DNA from: Lachnospiraceae bacterium | GTDB lineage: Bacteria; Bacillota; Clostridia; Lachnospirales; Lachnospiraceae | Assembly: GCA_045617045.1 (NCBI GenBank) | Contig: JAZLHV010000046.1 | Coordinates: 2,325 to 66,324 of the forward strand | Direction: 5' to 3' | Length of the DNA stretch: 64,000 nucleotides | Shown: piece after piece, positions 2,695-27,808 of the stretch | How the letters are laid out: each line of letters begins with the position of its first letter | Position numbering within the stretch: the stretch's first letter is position 1 | Program-made: the position numbers and the translations under genes | The notes under the pieces: model-generated | Told to the model about the DNA's origin: nothing | The model's input: only the letters and a program-made list of their open reading frames with translations | The model's database searches: none

Positions 2695-4971
2695 TCATTT
2701 TGTGCCTTCGATAATTTTCTTTTGCTCCAAAAGTTCTTTGGGAACTTCCTGACCGCAGGCTTTAATCTTCTGGATGACGTTTTCGAGATGGTGGAGCTTC
2801 TGAGCAATCTTTATCTCGTACTTTTCAATGATGTCGCCCAAAAGAGGGTTGGCCGACAACTTAACACGTAACTGTTTGTCGAAGGGGCAGTAAGTGAGCA
2901 TTATAGTGCGCACAACTTTGTTAAGACGAGGTGAGCCCTGACTTTCGTATACAATCCATGTAATGTAGTCACGCACAAACATTTCTTTGAAAGAGTTTTT
3001 GGCTTTAACAAGGCTCGATTTGATTTTTTCCTTGGTATCGGCGGAAAGCTCTGTGTTTTTGCGGTAGAACTGAATGTAATCAAAATATTCACTTGTTAAT
3101 GACTTGTCGCTTACATCGTTCCAACGGGCACCCTGAACGCGCTTGCACATTTCCCAGCGATATTCGCCGGTAAGTCTTGCAAGTGTCAGGAAAACGTCTT
3201 CAAGATGGAAGGCTGAAATCATAAAGCGCGAAGGCGTTGTGCGCTTGCGGCCTTCAATTTCCTGCCACATAACGCCGCGGGTACCGATGTTTGGCATTAA
3301 GATGATGTTCGGAAGAATGTGAACATCAATCATTTCCTTGGCAATGCCGATACCCTCATTGGTGTATATGGTTTCGTGGTTATAGGCTGTGTAGTCGACA
3401 GCTTCAATCTTGCGAAGTACCTCACAGAGAATGTCGGGCGTGAGGATGCAACTCTTAAGAGGCTTAATGATGTTGTGCTCGCTTAATATGGGTGTAAAGC
3501 TGCTCAAGCGGCCGAAGGTAACTTTGTTGACCATCGGGAACATATTTTCAAGCTCAAAAAGAACACGCTGTCCGGGGTCATTTGCCATTCTTGCCTCGAC
3601 ATCGGCAGCGATTTTGCCCTGAACTTTCTGCTCATGAAGATATGTAAGGTAGTCGGTGTCAAATTCATTACGGCTGGGATCTTTGCGCATTGTATATATA
3701 TCGTGCAACCATTCGTAAATGGTATAGATACCGTTAGTGGTGTCGCCATAGTATGAATCTGCGATTGAGTAAAGGTAATTTGAATTTTCAACGCCTGCAA
3801 GCTCTTCATCAACGTAGCCGAAGTTAAAGAACATTTTAAGCACTGTAGGAATCGAATAATCGCGTACACTCATCTGAAAAGCTTCGGTGTATACCTGATA
3901 GAAGACCTTTGTTAAGTCAAGGCGAAGCTTACGGGTGGCATCATCCGAGGCATCTTTGTCGGAAAGCTTTTTGTAGGCTTTAAGAAGAGTCCTGAATTCA
4001 CTTGCAACTTCCTCATCGACAGCGGAGTATTCAAGAATACGGTCGCAGGAACCTTTAAGCTCGGGATTTAACCGGTCGCCCGAAGCATTACCGTCATCGG
4101 AAACAGGTGCCTGTGCTGCCTGTGATACGGAACGGAACTCTTTGAATCTTGCATCGATAACGTCATCACTGATTATCCCGAGCTCTTTAATGTATACAAC
4201 CATTTCCTCGAGTATGCCTGTTATCTTGGCATAGTCGGGATTCTTGGAATCTATGCGCTTGGAAAGCGAAGCAAACAGGTCAAACAAATCAAGCCCGGAA
4301 TCCTGGATAAAAATGCCGGCGTGCTCGGAAAGATAGTCAAACATATTGGCACAACCGGACAGATAAGTGTGCAGGTCGTTGCTGGTTTTGGTGATAAAAC
4401 CGTTAAGATATGCAGGGCGGGCTGAAAGATTTAACTTTAATTCCTGCGGGAAATTTTTTACGGAAATGTAGTATTCACTCAGCCAGGCATCATCTTCGCC
4501 GGACTCATATTCAAAAGGCGTAAGCTCGTCAAGCTGCGGAAGTGCACGTGAAATTGCGTTGTTGCGTGAACATAAATCCAAATATGTTTCATAATATTTA
4601 CGGATATTTGCATAAAGTCCGTTGCAGATATTTTTAAGATGCGAATATCCTGCGTATATTTCGCAAAACTGGTTAACGGAGGAAGTAAATAAAAGCTTGC
4701 TTACTTCGGGGTTGGATTTGATAATCTGCGCCAATGAATTCCTGCCATTGTTGGGGAAAGAAATAAGAGCACTGTCTTCAATTACCTTGTATGTAAAGAA
4801 ACTGGAATCAAACGAGATATCTGAAATGCCGATTGCATCACCCTTCTTCAGAACAATTTCACCACCCGGAAAAGAAGCTATAACAGAACCTGATGCAATA
4901 ACATTTATAGCGTCTAAGGGATGACCTTCGGATAAGATAATCGAGTCTTTGACTACGGATTTAGCTGCCAT
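2695..4971 (-). CDS. Large conserved protein with a degenerate N-terminal cyclic-nucleotide-binding-like domain
   Basis: 758-aa ORF; N-terminus EGHPLDAINVIASGSV...LKKGDAIG resembles a cNMP-binding beta-roll; remainder not assigned. Confidence 0.6.
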   Translation of the reverse strand: MAAKSVVKDSIILSEGHPLDAINVIASGSVIASFPGGEIVLKKGDAIGISDISFDSSFFTYKVIEDSALISFPNNGRNSLAQIIKSNPEVSKLLFTSSVNQFCEIYAGYSHLKNICNGLYANIRKYYETYLDLCSRNNAISRALPQLDELTPFEYESGEDDAWLSEYYISVKNFPQELKLNLSARPAYLNGFITKTSNDLHTYLSGCANMFDYLSEHAGIFIQDSGLDLFDLFASLSKRIDSKNPDYAKITGILEEMVVYIKELGIISDDVIDARFKEFRSVSQAAQAPVSDDGNASGDRLNPELKGSCDRILEYSAVDEEVASEFRTLLKAYKKLSDKDASDDATRKLRLDLTKVFYQVYTEAFQMSVRDYSIPTVLKMFFNFGYVDEELAGVENSNYLYSIADSYYGDTTNGIYTIYEWLHDIYTMRKDPSRNEFDTDYLTYLHEQKVQGKIAADVEARMANDPGQRVLFELENMFPMVNKVTFGRLSSFTPILSEHNIIKPLKSCILTPDILCEVLRKIEAVDYTAYNHETIYTNEGIGIAKEMIDVHILPNIILMPNIGTRGVMWQEIEGRKRTTPSRFMISAFHLEDVFLTLARLTGEYRWEMCKRVQGARWNDVSDKSLTSEYFDYIQFYRKNTELSADTKEKIKSSLVKAKNSFKEMFVRDYITWIVYESQGSPRLNKVVRTIMLTYCPFDKQLRVKLSANPLLGDIIEKYEIKIAQKLHHLENVIQKIKACGQEVPKELLEQKKIIEGTK

Positions 4972-5124: not shown

Positions 5125-5601
5125 TTGGGTCTTTATATGATTTATGGGAGGACACCGGTGAAGGATGTTAATTTAAGTGCGTTTCGCAGCGACGTAGAGC
5201 GGCTTGTTACTTACATACCTTGGCTAGAATCCAAGGTCGGCACTAAAGTTTCCAAGACATATGATGGCAAAGAAGTTGCTTCTTCGACATTTTCTTTCCC
5301 TGTATATGAGACGATGCTTTTAAACTTCGTAAATGAAGCGGCCAAGACTGAGCTGATGGATCGCAACTATGTGTACGCATATTCCAGCAACGCAATCCGC
5401 ACTGTCGAAGATGAGTTTAAGGCAATAGATGAAGCAACGGTTCAGCATGCGGAAGTTTTAGTCGGAATTTTAAGTAAATACGTTCTGGGCGGTATGACCA
5501 AAGGTACTTTGTGGACCGAGGCTGTACAGAACGGTGTTTTTTTGAAGGTATTAAAGAAAATGAAAGAGCTTCTGGAAATCTGGGATGCTCCGTTAGCATA
5601 G
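5125..5601 (+). CDS. Hypothetical protein
   Basis: 158-aa ORF, apparently co-transcribed with the downstream TetR gene. Confidence 0.7.
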   Translation: MGLYMIYGRTPVKDVNLSAFRSDVERLVTYIPWLESKVGTKVSKTYDGKEVASSTFSFPVYETMLLNFVNEAAKTELMDRNYVYAYSSNAIRTVEDEFKAIDEATVQHAEVLVGILSKYVLGGMTKGTLWTEAVQNGVFLKVLKKMKELLEIWDAPLA

Positions 5602-5619
5602 AGTTAGAGGTGTGGATTT

Positions 5620-6201
5620 ATGAGTGACAAGGCGGCAAAAAAGAAGCAGTTTATTCTTGACACCGCAAGGGTTGTCTTTTGCAATAAGGGCTACAAGGAT
5701 GTTACTATGAAGGACATCGTTGAAGCTTGTGAAATATCACGTGGCGGTCTTTATATTTATTTTGACAGCACGGAAAGCATTTTTAAGGAAATTCTTGAAT
5801 CTGAAATAAGTAGTCTGCCGAAGTCCTGCGATGATAATTACGACACCTCGGCGGGTGATTTGCTTGCCCTGTTTTTGAATGAGCAGAAGAAGGAAATCCT
5901 TAACGTTAAGGATGAACTTTCGGTTGCAATTTATGAGTACATGTTTGCTAAGCATGCCCAAAATGAGCCTGAGACTGTCGTTACAGGCAAGTTATCCGAT
6001 ATGACTGTTTTTTTACAGAACATTATTGACAAGGGAGTTGCGTCAGGCGAGTTCTATGCTGATGACTCCTTTGCTGTGGCCCGTAACATTATGTATACGC
6101 TTGCAGGCTTGAAAATAGCTGCAAAGACTGTCGGCGTAACCGAAAAGGACGTTGACAATGAACTTGTTTACCTTATGTGCGGCCTAATAGCGGAAGAATA
6201 A
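5620..6201 (+). CDS. TetR/AcrR-family regulator
   Basis: ILDTARVVFCNKGYKDVTMKDIVEACEISRGGLYIYF TetR HTH. Confidence 0.92.
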   Translation: MSDKAAKKKQFILDTARVVFCNKGYKDVTMKDIVEACEISRGGLYIYFDSTESIFKEILESEISSLPKSCDDNYDTSAGDLLALFLNEQKKEILNVKDELSVAIYEYMFAKHAQNEPETVVTGKLSDMTVFLQNIIDKGVASGEFYADDSFAVARNIMYTLAGLKIAAKTVGVTEKDVDNELVYLMCGLIAEE

Positions 6202-6205
6202 TATA

Positions 6206-6234
6206 CCCCCGGGCGCCCAGTGCCCGGGGCTTTT
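6206..6234 (+). terminator. Intrinsic terminator-like hairpin
   Basis: ccccgggc/gcccgggg stem followed by cTTTT. Confidence 0.6.
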
Positions 6235-14844: not shown

Positions 14845-15834
14845 TTAAAAAATAGATTTCCATACTTCTGCGGAAATCTCCCTTTTGCCTTTATCGGTTT
14901 TTGTTTTCATTGCGTGAGCATACACTTCTTTTAATGTGGTATCAGTTTCCCACCCACCAAGATACATTACATCTTTCATCGGCACGTTTTGTGACAACAA
15001 TTTGCTTGCGAAGTAATGGCGCAGCTTGTGGATTGAAAAATTGTTAATGCCGAGTTCGTTTTGTGTCCGCAACAGGTAATTGGATATGCTCTGTGGACTA
15101 CCATTATATATATATCCCTGTTTGCGTATTGCATCTGCTATCTCCGGGGCAATTGGTATCGTTCTTGTAGAAGATGTTGTCTTGGTTGATTTTACAACCC
15201 ATTTATTCTTAATGTCTTCCACAAGTGCCTTGTCTATGGTAAGCATATTATCGTCTGCCAAATCATCAACAGTAAGAGCGCAGATTTCGGAACGCCTTAA
15301 GCCATTACAGGCTAATCCGATCGGAATATAAAACATTGTGTCTTGCGAACACGCCAATATCCTTTTGACTTCTTCGTCTGTGGGTATATAAGGCTCTTTT
15401 TTGACCTTTTGGGGCAATGTAACACGAAACTTGACATCTTGCCTATGGAAACCCAAAACCGATGAAATAAAGCCATTTAGCGAGCGTACTGTTTTAGGTG
15501 CTTTAGTCTTCGCAAGTTCGTTTACACACTTCTGCACATCTGATTGCGTTATTTCTGCTATATCCAATTTGATAAACCACGAAGGTAGTCTACCAATGTA
15601 TAGCGTATACTCTCGTATGGAACGTGGAGACAGGACATTCTTTTTTGCTTCGATATACTCTTTACAAGCGTGTTGAAACGAGCCTTGGCGTTCTACCTTC
15701 TTGCCTATCTTTTGATTAATTAATCGAAGTGCTTCCGTCTGGGATGGTTTGTCTTTGACAGTAACAGAGTATGTCTTTCCATCTACAACGTGCCGGATGC
15801 GATAACTTCCACTTGGTAACTTTTGAATGTACAT
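14845..15834 (-). CDS. int: Tyrosine integrase
   Basis: GLRRSEI (R), KT (K), HKLRH (HxxR), LGGW (H/W), EVYAH (Y); start chosen from the RBS before MYIQK. Confidence 0.95.
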   Translation of the reverse strand: MYIQKLPSGSYRIRHVVDGKTYSVTVKDKPSQTEALRLINQKIGKKVERQGSFQHACKEYIEAKKNVLSPRSIREYTLYIGRLPSWFIKLDIAEITQSDVQKCVNELAKTKAPKTVRSLNGFISSVLGFHRQDVKFRVTLPQKVKKEPYIPTDEEVKRILACSQDTMFYIPIGLACNGLRRSEICALTVDDLADDNMLTIDKALVEDIKNKWVVKSTKTTSSTRTIPIAPEIADAIRKQGYIYNGSPQSISNYLLRTQNELGINNFSIHKLRHYFASKLLSQNVPMKDVMYLGGWETDTTLKEVYAHAMKTKTDKGKREISAEVWKSIF

Positions 15835-15990
15835 AAACTCACCTTCTTTCTCACACTTTTTTAAATTAAAAAGTTTCATTTTGTGTGGCGCACCACATTT
15901 TCTTGTGACTCATTCAGCGAATAAAATTAAGTGACTTTTCACAGTTGACTTATATTTTGTAACAAGCGTTATTTGTATATATTTCCGATA

Positions 15991-21783: not shown

Positions 21784-21948
21784 ATGAAAGAAAAAAGCGT
21801 TACAAAGACCATTGAAGAAGTAAAAGAAGAAATCTGCGACAAGTATTGCAAGTTCATTGCCGAGTTTAACAAAGGGGAAAAGACAGATGCCGAGTTTTTG
21901 ACATTTTTGGAAGAACATTGCGAAGTCTGTCCGTTAAACAAACTATGA
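21784..21948 (+). CDS. 54-aa Cys-containing phage protein
   Basis: MKEKSVTKTIEEVKEEICDKYCKF...HCEVCPLNKL, read manually. Confidence 0.65.
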   Translation: MKEKSVTKTIEEVKEEICDKYCKFIAEFNKGEKTDAEFLTFLEEHCEVCPLNKL

Positions 21949-22613
21949 AGACACTTGAAGGACAGATAGGTTTATTTGATTTTCAACCCGATCTAAAAAC
22001 ACAACCGCAGATTAGTAAGCAAGAACAAGCAAGACAGGAAAAGAAAGACAAGGCTTTGTTCCAAGAGCAGAAACAAGATGCTTGGGATAGGACACACCCA
22101 CAGAACATAGAGCCAAACGGCATACTACCTTGTGAGAATTGCGGTGGTATTCCAAGAATTGAGCAATTTTCAGTATCCGATGCGAGATTTTCTGTTGTCT
22201 GCGAATGTGGTGTTGAGTCAGTTAGGAATCCGGGAAGTTGGCTTGACCTGTCAAACACAAGGCAAGAAGCAATAGACCATTGGAACAAAGGATACCGCAG
22301 AATGAATCCACTACAAGACGGAACAAAGCGCACACACGATGAAATGTTTAAGTGGGATTTCGACACGTACAGAAGTTGTCCGCAGATGCTTTCAATGTTT
22401 AAACGAGTGCTTAACAAGGCAACACAGAAAGTGTGCGAGTGCTACTACCAAATAGAGCAACCAAGAGTGTGGATGCCGAAACCTTGCATACAGGTAAATG
22501 AAAAGAGAAACGGATACATCTCTGTACATCAGTATCAAACCATAGCTGCGCTTGTTGAAGAGTGGGATTTTCCAGAATTGGAACAATGGGCGAGAGAACA
22601 TTACGAAGGGTAG
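21945..22613 (+). CDS. Protein with a Lar-like (restriction alleviation) zinc-finger domain
   Basis: LPCENCGG...VVCECG...QEAIDHWN matches the Lar_restr_allev pattern. Confidence 0.6.
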   Translation: MKTLEGQIGLFDFQPDLKTQPQISKQEQARQEKKDKALFQEQKQDAWDRTHPQNIEPNGILPCENCGGIPRIEQFSVSDARFSVVCECGVESVRNPGSWLDLSNTRQEAIDHWNKGYRRMNPLQDGTKRTHDEMFKWDFDTYRSCPQMLSMFKRVLNKATQKVCECYYQIEQPRVWMPKPCIQVNEKRNGYISVHQYQTIAALVEEWDFPELEQWAREHYEG

Positions 22614-22619
22614 GAAATA

Positions 22620-23332
22620 ATGAAGATAAGAAAAGTACATTGCTTATTCGAGCAAAGCGGAACGTTTAAAAACGAGTTTATCAAATTGGGAGTTCCGGCA
22701 GAAGATTACGATATCCAAAACGAGTTTGGACAGACCGACCACATCATTGACTTGTTTACAGAAATTCGGGGGGGGGGTATGACGGAAAGCCTTCTATATT
22801 CGATGAAATGACACAGGATGATTTGATTATGGCGTTCTTCCCTTGCATACGATTTGAAAATCAAATAAACATTTCGCTTCGTGGACAAGCACACGGAATG
22901 GAGAATTGGACAGACAAGCAGAAAGTAGAAAACTGTATGCGGATACAAAACGAAGTGAACGAATTTTATCAATTGGTTAGCAAATTGTTTCTTCTCTGCG
23001 AAGAAAAAGGGTTGCGAATGATTTTAGAAAATCCTTATAGCAAGGAGCATTACTTACAACGTTATTGGTGCATACAACCAAGCATCATAGATATGGACAG
23101 AACGGAGCGCGGGGATTACTTCGTTAAGCCTACACAATTTTGGTTTTTCAATTGCGCTCCAGAGCAGAACGTTATTTTCGAGGTAATTTCCATTAACGCC
23201 CTTGGCGTTGGCGAAGACAGATTGAGTAAAGCACATTGCAACAAAATTGGCAAAGACGTTTCGATTAAGACCGCCCGATCAATGATACATCCACACTATG
23301 CTAACAGATTTATTAGGGAGTTTATTTTATGA
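22620..23332 (+). pseudogene. DNA cytosine-C5 methyltransferase-like gene split by a frameshift at G10 (22768-22777)
   Basis: CLFEQSG (motif I-like) upstream; FFPC (catalytic PC), ENP and KPTQFW downstream; YDGKPSIFDEMTQ continues in the shifted frame; G8 or G11 would fuse the halves. Confidence 0.75.
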
Positions 23333-23821
23333 AGGACTTAATTATTAAGCCTATATCACTAAAAGATGCAAACGCTTATGTAGAAGAAAACCATAGACAC
23401 CACAGGAAGACACAAGGACACAAATTTAGCATTGGCGTTTTTTCGGGGGGGGGTGCTACGTGGCGTTGCGATAGTTGGAAGACCATTATCAAGACATCTT
23501 GACGATGGAGAAACATTAGAAGTCTTGCGGTTATGCACAGACGGAACATACAACGCTTGCTCCATCCTATATGGCAGATGCGCAAAGATTTCAAAGGATA
23601 TGGGTTATCACAAAATCATTACTTACATTTTGGAAGAAGAACAGGGAACATCCCTTAAAGCAAGTGGGTGGACTCTTGAAGAAGAAAACGTAGGTGGTGG
23701 AAGTTGGGAAAATTGCTCACGCAGAGAAGATGACAGAACGTATCAGCAAATGACACTATTTTCCGAGCGTGAGAAGTACCCAATCGGTAAAAAGAAAAGG
23801 TATTCACGAATTTTAGATTAA
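23329..23821 (+). pseudogene. XF1762-family (GNAT/Mom-like) gene split by a frameshift at G9 (23445-23453)
   Basis: KPISLKDANAYVEENHRHH...GHKFSIGVF, then VLRGVAIVGRP...LEVLRLCTDGTYNACSILYG...ITY.L..E.GTSLKASGW in the +1 frame; G8 restores the frame. Confidence 0.75.
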
Positions 23822-23830
23822 GGAGAGTAT

Positions 23831-24442
23831 ATGAAATTTTCAATTATAATCCCTGTTCACAATGCAGAGGACAGGATTACAAGAGCATTAGACATCATAG
23901 CATCGCAGACATTCAAGGATTACGAATTAATCTGCGTGTGTGATGCCTGTACAGACAGAAGCGCAAGTATATGTAGGGGGTACACAAAAAACGTGTACGA
24001 AGTCGATTTCGGCAATGATGGATTAACTCGCAGCTACGGACTCGACAGAGCGCAAGGCGAGTGGGTGATGTTCCACGATGATGACGATTTCATACTTGCA
24101 GACGATGTGTTGGAGAACTTAAACAAAGCACTTACAGATAATTTCGACATCCTGTGTTGCGGTTTCGTATGGAAGGGTTACGGAATAATGACACCCTTTT
24201 ATATGAACGATGAAAGCAAAGGTTTGTGGGTGAACGTCTGGAGCAAAGTATGGAGACGTTCTGCAATTGGAGACATTCGCTTTCCGAACGTACATAGCGT
24301 AAGTGATATGCATTTCAACAATGCGGTGATGTCACAGGAAGGCATAAGGATAGCAACGCTTAATTATCCATTTTATTACTACAACTATATGCGGAAGGGG
24401 AGCATCACAGAGATAGATGAGCGGAAGAAGATTAACAAGTGA
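23831..24442 (+). CDS. Glycosyltransferase family 2 (GT-A)
   Basis: FSIIIPVHN, LICVCDACTD, GEWVMFHDDDD (DxD), VWSKVWRR. Confidence 0.9.
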   Translation: MKFSIIIPVHNAEDRITRALDIIASQTFKDYELICVCDACTDRSASICRGYTKNVYEVDFGNDGLTRSYGLDRAQGEWVMFHDDDDFILADDVLENLNKALTDNFDILCCGFVWKGYGIMTPFYMNDESKGLWVNVWSKVWRRSAIGDIRFPNVHSVSDMHFNNAVMSQEGIRIATLNYPFYYYNYMRKGSITEIDERKKINK

Positions 24443-27555: not shown

Positions 27556-27808
27556 ATGACAAACAAAGATTACAGAGAATGGATTAAAGAACGTGACGAA
27601 GCGGTTAGGTCTTTAGATGTTGATACATTTACGAAATTCTATACCAAGTGGCAAGAGAAGGGCATATATCAGTTGCCCCTTGCCCGATCGTAAAGTCACA
27701 GAAATGGCAATGTACAAAATGGCGTTTAATATCCCGGAGATGCCTACCGCAATCAAGATTAAGGCTCTTAATTGGTTGAAGAACAGGGGGTACGATGCGC
27801 TGATATGA
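27556..27808 (+). pseudogene. Small phage gene with an apparent +1 frameshift at C4 (27676-27679)
   Basis: MTNKDYREWIKERDEAVRSLDV...GIYQLP stops at 27693; PLPDRKVTEMAMYKMA...WLKNRGY continues in the adjacent frame; removing one C fuses them. Confidence 0.55.

Follow-up and report, generated by a model that had tools for sequence, protein, structure and literature searches.

Poly-G tracts as probable slipped-strand switches in two DNA-modification genes of a Lachnospiraceae prophage

Results

A 64,000-nucleotide (nt) stretch of a Lachnospiraceae bacterium contig (JAZLHV010000046.1; hereafter, the window) contains a ~32-kb prophage, and in its early/middle region lie two adjacent genes that are each frameshifted at a long run of G. 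Gene 1 encodes a protein with the predicted fold of a DNA C5-methyltransferase, and gene 2 a Mom-like GNAT protein of the XF1762 family (Table 1). The G10 tract occupies nt 149–158 of gene 1, and the G9 tract nt 117–125 of gene 2. An earlier note on this DNA had pointed to them as its longest G runs, which a census of the window bears out: no other run of G or C is longer than six, G6 occurs once, and C runs of six or more are absent from the 64 kb. If bases were independent and identically distributed, 0.11 G runs of at least nine would be expected per window.

As assembled, both genes leave their reading frame at the tract. The ATG of gene 1 is preceded by an AGGAAA ribosome-binding site and opens 63 codons that end in a stop at 22809–22811, the remaining 174 codons continuing in the −1 frame to 23332. 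The ATG of gene 2 overlaps the gene 1 stop (ATGA); its frame ends at a stop at 23500–23502, and the remainder follows in the +1 frame to 23821. A length of G8 or G11 restores the frame of gene 1 and likewise that of gene 2, exactly as the frame arithmetic of the earlier note had it. Over their whole lengths, the restored proteins (236 and 163 residues) can be aligned with intact homologues, the best of which share 68% and 84% identity, respectively. The stop of the 63-residue gene 1 fragment itself overlaps an ATG (ATGA, 22808–22811) that opens the 174-residue C-terminal frame, and re-initiation at this ATG (22808) could yield a gene 1 fragment without motif I in the out-of-frame (OFF) state.

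Table 1 Features of the prophage region, in window coordinates
Feature	Position	Strand	Evidence
Gene 1, DNA-modification gene with predicted C5-methyltransferase fold, phrog_757-like, frameshifted	22620..23332	+	reading frames, phrog_757, fold, motifs
G10 tract of gene 1, OFF length, codons Arg-Gly-Gly ('EIRGGY')	22768..22777	+	run census, relatives
Gene 2, XF1762-family Mom-like GNAT, frameshifted	23329..23821	+	NF045478, PF25680, phrog_1384, fold
G9 tract of gene 2, OFF length, beta-hairpin turn, codons 39–41 (Ser-Gly-Gly)	23445..23453	+	run census, relatives
Upstream gene with weak Lar-like zinc-ribbon segment (context, outside the switch)	21918..22613	+	sub-threshold PF14354, TIGR03655
Family-2 glycosyltransferase (GT2), downstream context	23831..24442	+	PF00535, E 1.9e-20
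Integrase	14845..15879	−	
ERF recombinase	18334		
Large terminase	30751		
Portal	32070		
Minor capsid protein	33490		

We gathered relatives of gene 1 by protein similarity alone (nine viral, two usable genomic and 51 metagenomic loci, here given L numbers), which with the window make 63 copies. Their DNA was aligned, and the frame was tested by script between the conserved anchors GTFK, FFPC and ENP. When the copies are clustered at 93% identity, 27 of the 47 clusters carry a repeat inside gene 1, be it G6–G11, C9, (GA)8 or (AAGAC)7, and OFF alleles are present in 11 of these 27; fifteen of the 63 copies are frameshifted exactly at the repeat. Within one cluster of 11 members, at least 93% identical, the tract is G7 once, G8 seven times and G9 three times.

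The window's own site, at nt 149 ('EIRGGY'), is out of frame with G10 in the window and with G7 in L090, and in frame with G11 in L002 and G8 in L081. About 13 nt downstream ('Y.GGAS'), G8 is in frame in 12 loci, four loci whose flanking context differs keep the frame with G7 or G9, and G6, G7, G9 or G10 is out of frame in ten. At nt 383 ('RGG'), five loci with G8 or G9 are in frame and two with G7 are out of frame, and further in-frame tracts are found at nt 452 (C9) and nt 545 (G8). The position of the poly-G run at the first site is taken by (GA)8, in frame, in L009 (1916–2160) and by (AAGAC)7, out of frame, in L010 (4001–4260); three repeat types occupy one surface loop of the gene 1 protein. 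Five database proteins with 'EIRGGY', 62–65% identical to that of the window, have their RGG encoded by an uninterrupted G8 (nt 140–156) in 12 of 12 contigs (L131–L133 and L135–L143). Because all 12 carry this length, we take G8 to be the usual in-frame (ON) length in the clade of the window, from which the window tract departs by +2, or by −1 if counted from the G11 of L002.

These runs are concentrated in the gene itself. In 292 kb of gene 1 loci, 38 of the 40 G or C runs of at least seven lie inside the 41 kb of the gene rather than in the 251 kb of flank, a 117-fold enrichment (binomial p ~1e-30, somewhat inflated by relatedness). The codons are also unusual for the prophage, which uses GGG less than any other glycine codon (10%) and encodes just one of the 25 other Gly-Gly dipeptides as GGGGGG; the chance that an R-G-G would be coded as an unbroken run of G is ~0.2%.

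Other gene 1 relatives differ in ways of their own. In an isolate-genome prophage, the L008 homologue has an in-frame G8 and an in-frame TGA (4470–4472; 'IDKN*MLRGDYY'), which is either a nonsense mutation or a site of read-through. L093 (976–1780) contains ~45 nt more than its close relative L088, inserted in frame in the helical region that follows motif IV. A scan of genome contigs for gene 1 returned only four loci, among them L078 (3001–3600, Prevotella sp. oral taxon 376), which we rejected as a relative: it is a chimera that has only the first 59 residues in common, with an unrelated C-terminal part, and its break falls directly after the position of the repeat loop. PAPS-reductase-family genes lie 1–2 kb from gene 1 homologues in L134 (1731–2417), L142 (4354–5109) and L143 (4342–5097), which suggests a shared DNA-modification slot in these phage contigs.

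Long tracts are rarer in gene 2 than in gene 1, with six in-gene runs of at least seven among 65 viral gene 2 loci (4.3-fold enrichment, p 0.005), and they recur at two sites, the hairpin turn that holds the window tract and ~nt 351. In L019, too, the hairpin turn holds a tract, a G8. Around nt 351, the runs of L016 (G12), L018 (G8), L021 (G7) and L022 (G11) are all in frame, and a G9 near nt 351 is out of frame in L039, in which one G fewer restores the family C-terminus. In the closest relatives of gene 2, with 79–84% identity, the tract occupies the codons that hold it in the window. Three of these relatives, from three different samples (L144, L145 and L146), have GAG followed by G7 and are out of frame; these were first met as database open reading frames starting just after the tract, and are frameshifted copies. 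Intact relatives have G8 after GAG (L148) or G7 after GAA (L147). The context in the window is TCG, and therefore G8 would be its ON length and the observed G9 a +1 change. For gene 2, we consider these ON and OFF tracts in its closest relatives to be decisive.

The earlier note had proposed phase variation and had named tract lengths in homologous prophages as a way to check it. For both genes, that comparison, drawn from many independent assemblies, finds the tracts at the same codons with varied lengths, some in frame and others not, and so upholds the proposal.

We then asked what the two restored proteins resemble. That of gene 1 has no match in Pfam or NCBIfam at E-values up to 1, PF00145 included, and a 73-member profile of its family found no match in a sequence search of the PDB. 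It matches phrog_757, annotated 'DNA methyltransferase' (E 4.8e-20), and its homologues over the full length number more than 8,000; they are unnamed, lack a Pfam domain and reach 68% identity. A comparison of folds was needed for both genes, since sequence searches gave no link to solved structures. For gene 1 we used the AlphaFold (AF2) model of an intact member 67% identical to the window protein (predicted local distance difference test (pLDDT) 92.6, predicted template modelling (TM) score 0.89). The top 36 Foldseek matches of this model are all DNA C5-methyltransferase entries (DNMT3A/3B/3L, DNMT1, DIM2, MET1 and DNMT2), with E-values from 4e-6, a best probability of 1.0 and a TM score of ~0.5. 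In the model, the tract position falls at the end of helix 45–53 and in the loop after it.

Like the DNA cytosine-C5 methyltransferases (PF00145; DNMT3A/3B), the gene 1 family has an acidic residue after strand 2, a Pro-Cys in motif IV (FFPC) and a motif VI-like Glu-Asn-Pro (ENP), in which Pro replaces the Val of Glu-Asn-Val; FFPC and ENP are invariant in 73 family sequences. Unlike them, it is without a Pfam or PDB sequence match, its motif I is an invariant FEQSGTFK rather than FxGxG in the same 73 sequences, and the protein, at ~236 residues, has no recognisable target-recognition domain, the model showing no separate domain. The earlier description of gene 1 as C5-methyltransferase-like holds at the level of the fold (DNMT3A/3B/1/2) and of the invariant motifs, and the model indicates that the fold of the family has been kept where its profile fails. 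With its C5-methyltransferase fold and its catalytic Pro-Cys and Glu-Asn-Pro motifs, gene 1 most likely encodes an active enzyme that modifies pyrimidines of DNA at C5. As the cofactor loop is not the FxGxG that binds S-adenosylmethionine, this predicted enzyme might install a group other than methyl.

The assignment of gene 2 begins from its sequence. The restored protein scores 194.6 bits against NF045478, the XF1762 family (cut-off 50, profile positions 2–138 of 143), and 35.9 bits against the Pfam Mom family PF25680 (cut-off 27.1), and it matches phrog_1384, which is annotated as Mom-like. The XF1762 family numbers about 3,000 proteins. A HMMER comparison of the XF1762 profile with Mom of phage Mu (8BV8) gave no match. 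Foldseek nevertheless ranks this structure first for the AF2 model of a member 84% identical to the window protein (pLDDT 87.8), with an E-value of 4.5e-8 and a TM score of 0.69 at only 17% identity. The tract lies in the hairpin turn between strands 32–38 and 41–49, a lower-confidence segment (121–153) contains one helix, and R54, R66, S77, S107 and S111 are invariant in XF1762 proteins. The earlier note's view of XF1762 as Mom-like is borne out by these profile, phrog and structural matches, and on such sequence and model comparisons the label is justified.

Mu Mom transfers glycine from Gly-tRNA(Gly) to the N6 of adenine, giving 6-NcmdA; its catalytic residues are R111, S124, D149 and R151, and its activity needs a helix-turn-helix (HTH)-like insertion at residues ~175–209 (Silva et al. 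2026, PMC13219725). By analogy, the gene 2 product most likely acts on adenine N6 in the same manner. The two share a GNAT fold but differ in regulation, mom of Mu being under the control of Dam, OxyR and Com, and gene 2 probably under that of a repeat. No tRNA-Gly gene lies near gene 2, and no paper that we found mentions XF1762.

The earlier note had also described an ON/OFF cassette. Motif scans of ~140 loci find the two genes together only in the window, in L002 (adjacent, in the opposite order) and in L063 (2.5 kb apart), and a conserved two-gene cassette is therefore ruled out. L063 carries another gene 1 homologue with an in-frame G10. Tracts also occur in further modification genes. 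A canonical C5-methyltransferase gene (ENVPG, QRRRR, GNS) near an XF1762 gene in L068 (1447–2998) is split into two frames at a G8 (1937–1944), and in L026 a ParB-domain DNA methyltransferase gene (5412–6222) is apparently split at a G8 (5957–5964); L026 has a further G9 at 165–173. In L039, an NPPF-motif methyltransferase-like gene (3382–3927) with an in-frame G8 ('KRGGY') stands just upstream of the XF1762 gene that is frameshifted at G9, and the sequence marks L039 as a second locus with two tract-bearing modification genes.

The prophage adjoins a tRNA cluster at its integrase gene, and its ERF recombinase, large terminase, portal and minor capsid protein genes follow downstream. A blastn comparison of the window with INPHARED phages gave nothing beyond a match of 107 bp, to two Bacteroides phages. 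Of the two flanking genes named in the earlier note, the GT2 gene stands, with a strong PF00535 match; the Lar-like assignment is weak, as the upstream gene falls below both cut-offs (PF14354, 19.4 bits versus 28.6; TIGR03655, 17.5 versus 39.6). In the relative L147, a Lar-family gene lies upstream of the Mom-like gene. Elsewhere in the window, at 27556–27808, two short open reading frames become a single 83-residue reading when one C is removed from a C4 run (27676–27679). The joined reading has a weak match to phrog_38706 (E 0.0045), which neither half matches alone, and no relatives of it were found in viral contigs.

Discussion

The tracts and frames at this locus, the folds of the two products, the family-wide polymorphism of the tracts and their enrichment within the genes are consistent with one interpretation, which we hold to be very probable on the sequence evidence: both poly-G runs act as slipped-strand contingency switches on two independent DNA-modification genes, and both genes are OFF in this assembly. 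In the loci compared, the hypermutable tracts of both genes stand at conserved codons that map to structurally tolerant positions, and both genes have ON and OFF alleles in nature. For the switching rate, the chemistry of the two enzymes and the selective trade-off we rely on inference.

Whether the prophage replicates with the host chromosome or the phage grows lytically, polymerase slippage would add or remove Gs, and each gene would move reversibly between an in-frame ON and an out-of-frame OFF state. Two switches that act independently would allow as many as four DNA-modification states in a lysate, of which OFF/OFF is the majority state in this assembly. The overlap of the gene 2 start with the gene 1 stop (ATGA) means that an OFF gene 1 may lower the translation of gene 2. 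Phages in the ON state would carry DNA modified at pyrimidine C5, at adenine N6, or at both, and would escape ordinary restriction, and those in the OFF state would avoid modification-dependent (Type IV) nucleases or the costs of modification. The benefit is likely bet-hedging, and modification may also be costly to the lysogen. An anti-restriction role, and subpopulations of virions that differ in modification, would presumably follow from such switching.

Several points weigh against this interpretation. Tract lengths, in the window and in relatives alike, were read from assembly consensus, many of the relatives are single metagenome consensus contigs, and some OFF calls could be assembly errors. 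The activities of both enzymes are predictions from fold and family, and gene 1 fails PF00145 and is without FxGxG. XF1762 proteins are ~70 residues shorter than Mu Mom (~160 versus 231), and the Pfam match of gene 2 ends at profile position 149 of 202; the HTH-like insertion may therefore be missing or reduced. Lastly, two OFF genes together with a possible third frameshift at the C4 run would fit a decaying prophage too, and because of this possible frameshift decay and sporadic error stay as minor alternatives.

If the assembler or polisher had miscounted the homopolymers, the true tracts would be in frame, for example as G11 and G8. Long G runs are difficult for every sequencing platform, the genome is a 2.43-Mb draft in 58 contigs, 94% complete and probably metagenome-assembled, and the possible extra C at 27676–27679 might be another indel error; a search of public sequencing runs returned only one run, with 5% of the words. 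However, none of the 16 A/T runs of seven or eight in the window breaks a gene, each falling within an open frame or at the end of a gene, which argues against a general homopolymer problem, and out-of-frame lengths recur at the same sites in independent MEGAHIT, SPAdes, JGI and Logan assemblies from many samples. Consensus error thus seems improbable to us, and the loci would stay contingency tracts even with a wrong count in the window. Somewhat less probable again is a defective prophage in which two inactivating frameshifts became fixed in mutable runs, with no adaptive switching. Such decay would leave both genes OFF and could account for the possible third frameshift 4 kb downstream, and the stop codon of the L008 homologue, taken as nonsense, shows that members of the gene 1 family do decay. 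Yet the rest of the ~32-kb prophage consists of intact long open reading frames (integrase, ERF, terminase, portal and minor capsid protein), and the tracts are kept, against codon usage, at the same codons in relatives that are only 62–84% identical. In-frame lengths predominate, three repeat types share one loop, and decay leaves the maintenance of repeats unexplained.

The out-of-frame length could instead be the working state, with full-length protein made by programmed ribosomal frameshifting or by slippage of RNA polymerase on the G run. RNA polymerase can slip on long homopolymers, OFF alleles may thereby leak some full-length protein, and the 63-residue fragment of gene 1 ends in a stop that overlaps an ATG. 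Programmed sites, though, keep one fixed out-of-frame length, whereas the tracts here vary between G6 and G12, the majority of relatives are in frame as they stand, and individual copies are shifted by −1, +1 or +2; no conserved stimulatory element was seen, though no search was aimed at one. We regard programmed recoding as the least probable of these explanations, and very unlikely. Slipped-strand phase variation of both genes remains the interpretation that we favour.

In bacteria, phase variation of DNA methyltransferases by means of repeats is a classic strategy; that phages use it too is a very recent proposal, drawn from T-even lysates grown in the laboratory (PMC12633550). As in bacterial phasevarions (Type III mod, Type I hsd, Type IIG cj0031), a repeat would turn a DNA-modifying enzyme ON and OFF, the tract lies near the 5′ part of the gene, and both alleles are present in populations. 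The phasevarion enzymes, however, are chromosomal components of restriction-modification systems and also global regulators, whereas the present genes encode orphan enzymes carried by a phage and lie in the early/middle part of a prophage, where they presumably serve the phage's own DNA. Among phages, poly-G tracts in the receptor-binding genes of Campylobacter phages are reportedly contingency loci as well (Sorensen et al. 2021).

The nearest comparison among phages is with T2 and T4, in which poly-A runs of agt and rIIA are contingency loci (Gomez, Barrick and Waters, bioRxiv 2025, PMC12633550). In T2, agt switches at poly-A runs, with a trade-off between TgvAB and McrBC, and variants of A6–A9 runs are detected at 1e-4 to 1e-3 in laboratory lysates (PMC12633550). 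The likeness is close, in that a homopolymer in a phage gene undergoes reversible frameshifts and the switched T2 gene is also a DNA-modification enzyme caught between two restriction systems; the experimental precedent for the trade-off proposed here is T2 agt. In contrast to T2 and T4, the present tracts consist of long poly-G (G7–G12) or of GA and AAGAC repeats, their carriers are temperate phages whose hosts are uncultured bacteria, conservation extends over whole gene families, with fixed ON and OFF alleles in natural samples, and the genes encode a predicted C5-methyltransferase-fold enzyme and a Mom-like GNAT.

The mechanism, repeat-driven phase variation of DNA-modifying enzymes, is thus already known, and phage contingency loci have recently been described. 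New here are the gene families, the family-wide conservation of the tracts, the presence of three kinds of repeat in a single loop, and the ON/OFF polymorphism that temperate phages show in nature. Our literature searches found no report of repeat-switched phage genes of the Mom-like or phrog_757-like kind. A wider reading, which we find plausible though slightly short of probable, is that gene 1 represents a very large unnamed family with a minimal C5-methyltransferase fold that lacks a target-recognition domain, in most lineages of which a hypermutable repeat of poly-G, poly-C, GA or AAGAC sits at one of a few surface positions; switching would then be selected across the family and, together with an independently switched Mom-like adenine modifier, could provide a temperate phage with four heritable modification states that hedge between restriction of the ordinary and of the modification-dependent kind.

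Overall, two unrelated families of phage DNA-modification genes keep long slippery tracts at fixed codons, and both ON and OFF alleles are met across many samples from the gut, the rumen and bioreactors. Such natural ON and OFF alleles imply that modifying phage DNA sometimes harms the phage, the likely reasons being modification-dependent nucleases or a cost to the lysogen. Candidates for biochemical study are the unnamed gene 1 family, which has more than 8,000 members, and, among Mom-like enzymes, the XF1762 branch, and frameshifted phage modification genes met in metagenome annotation should not be dismissed as pseudogenes or errors.

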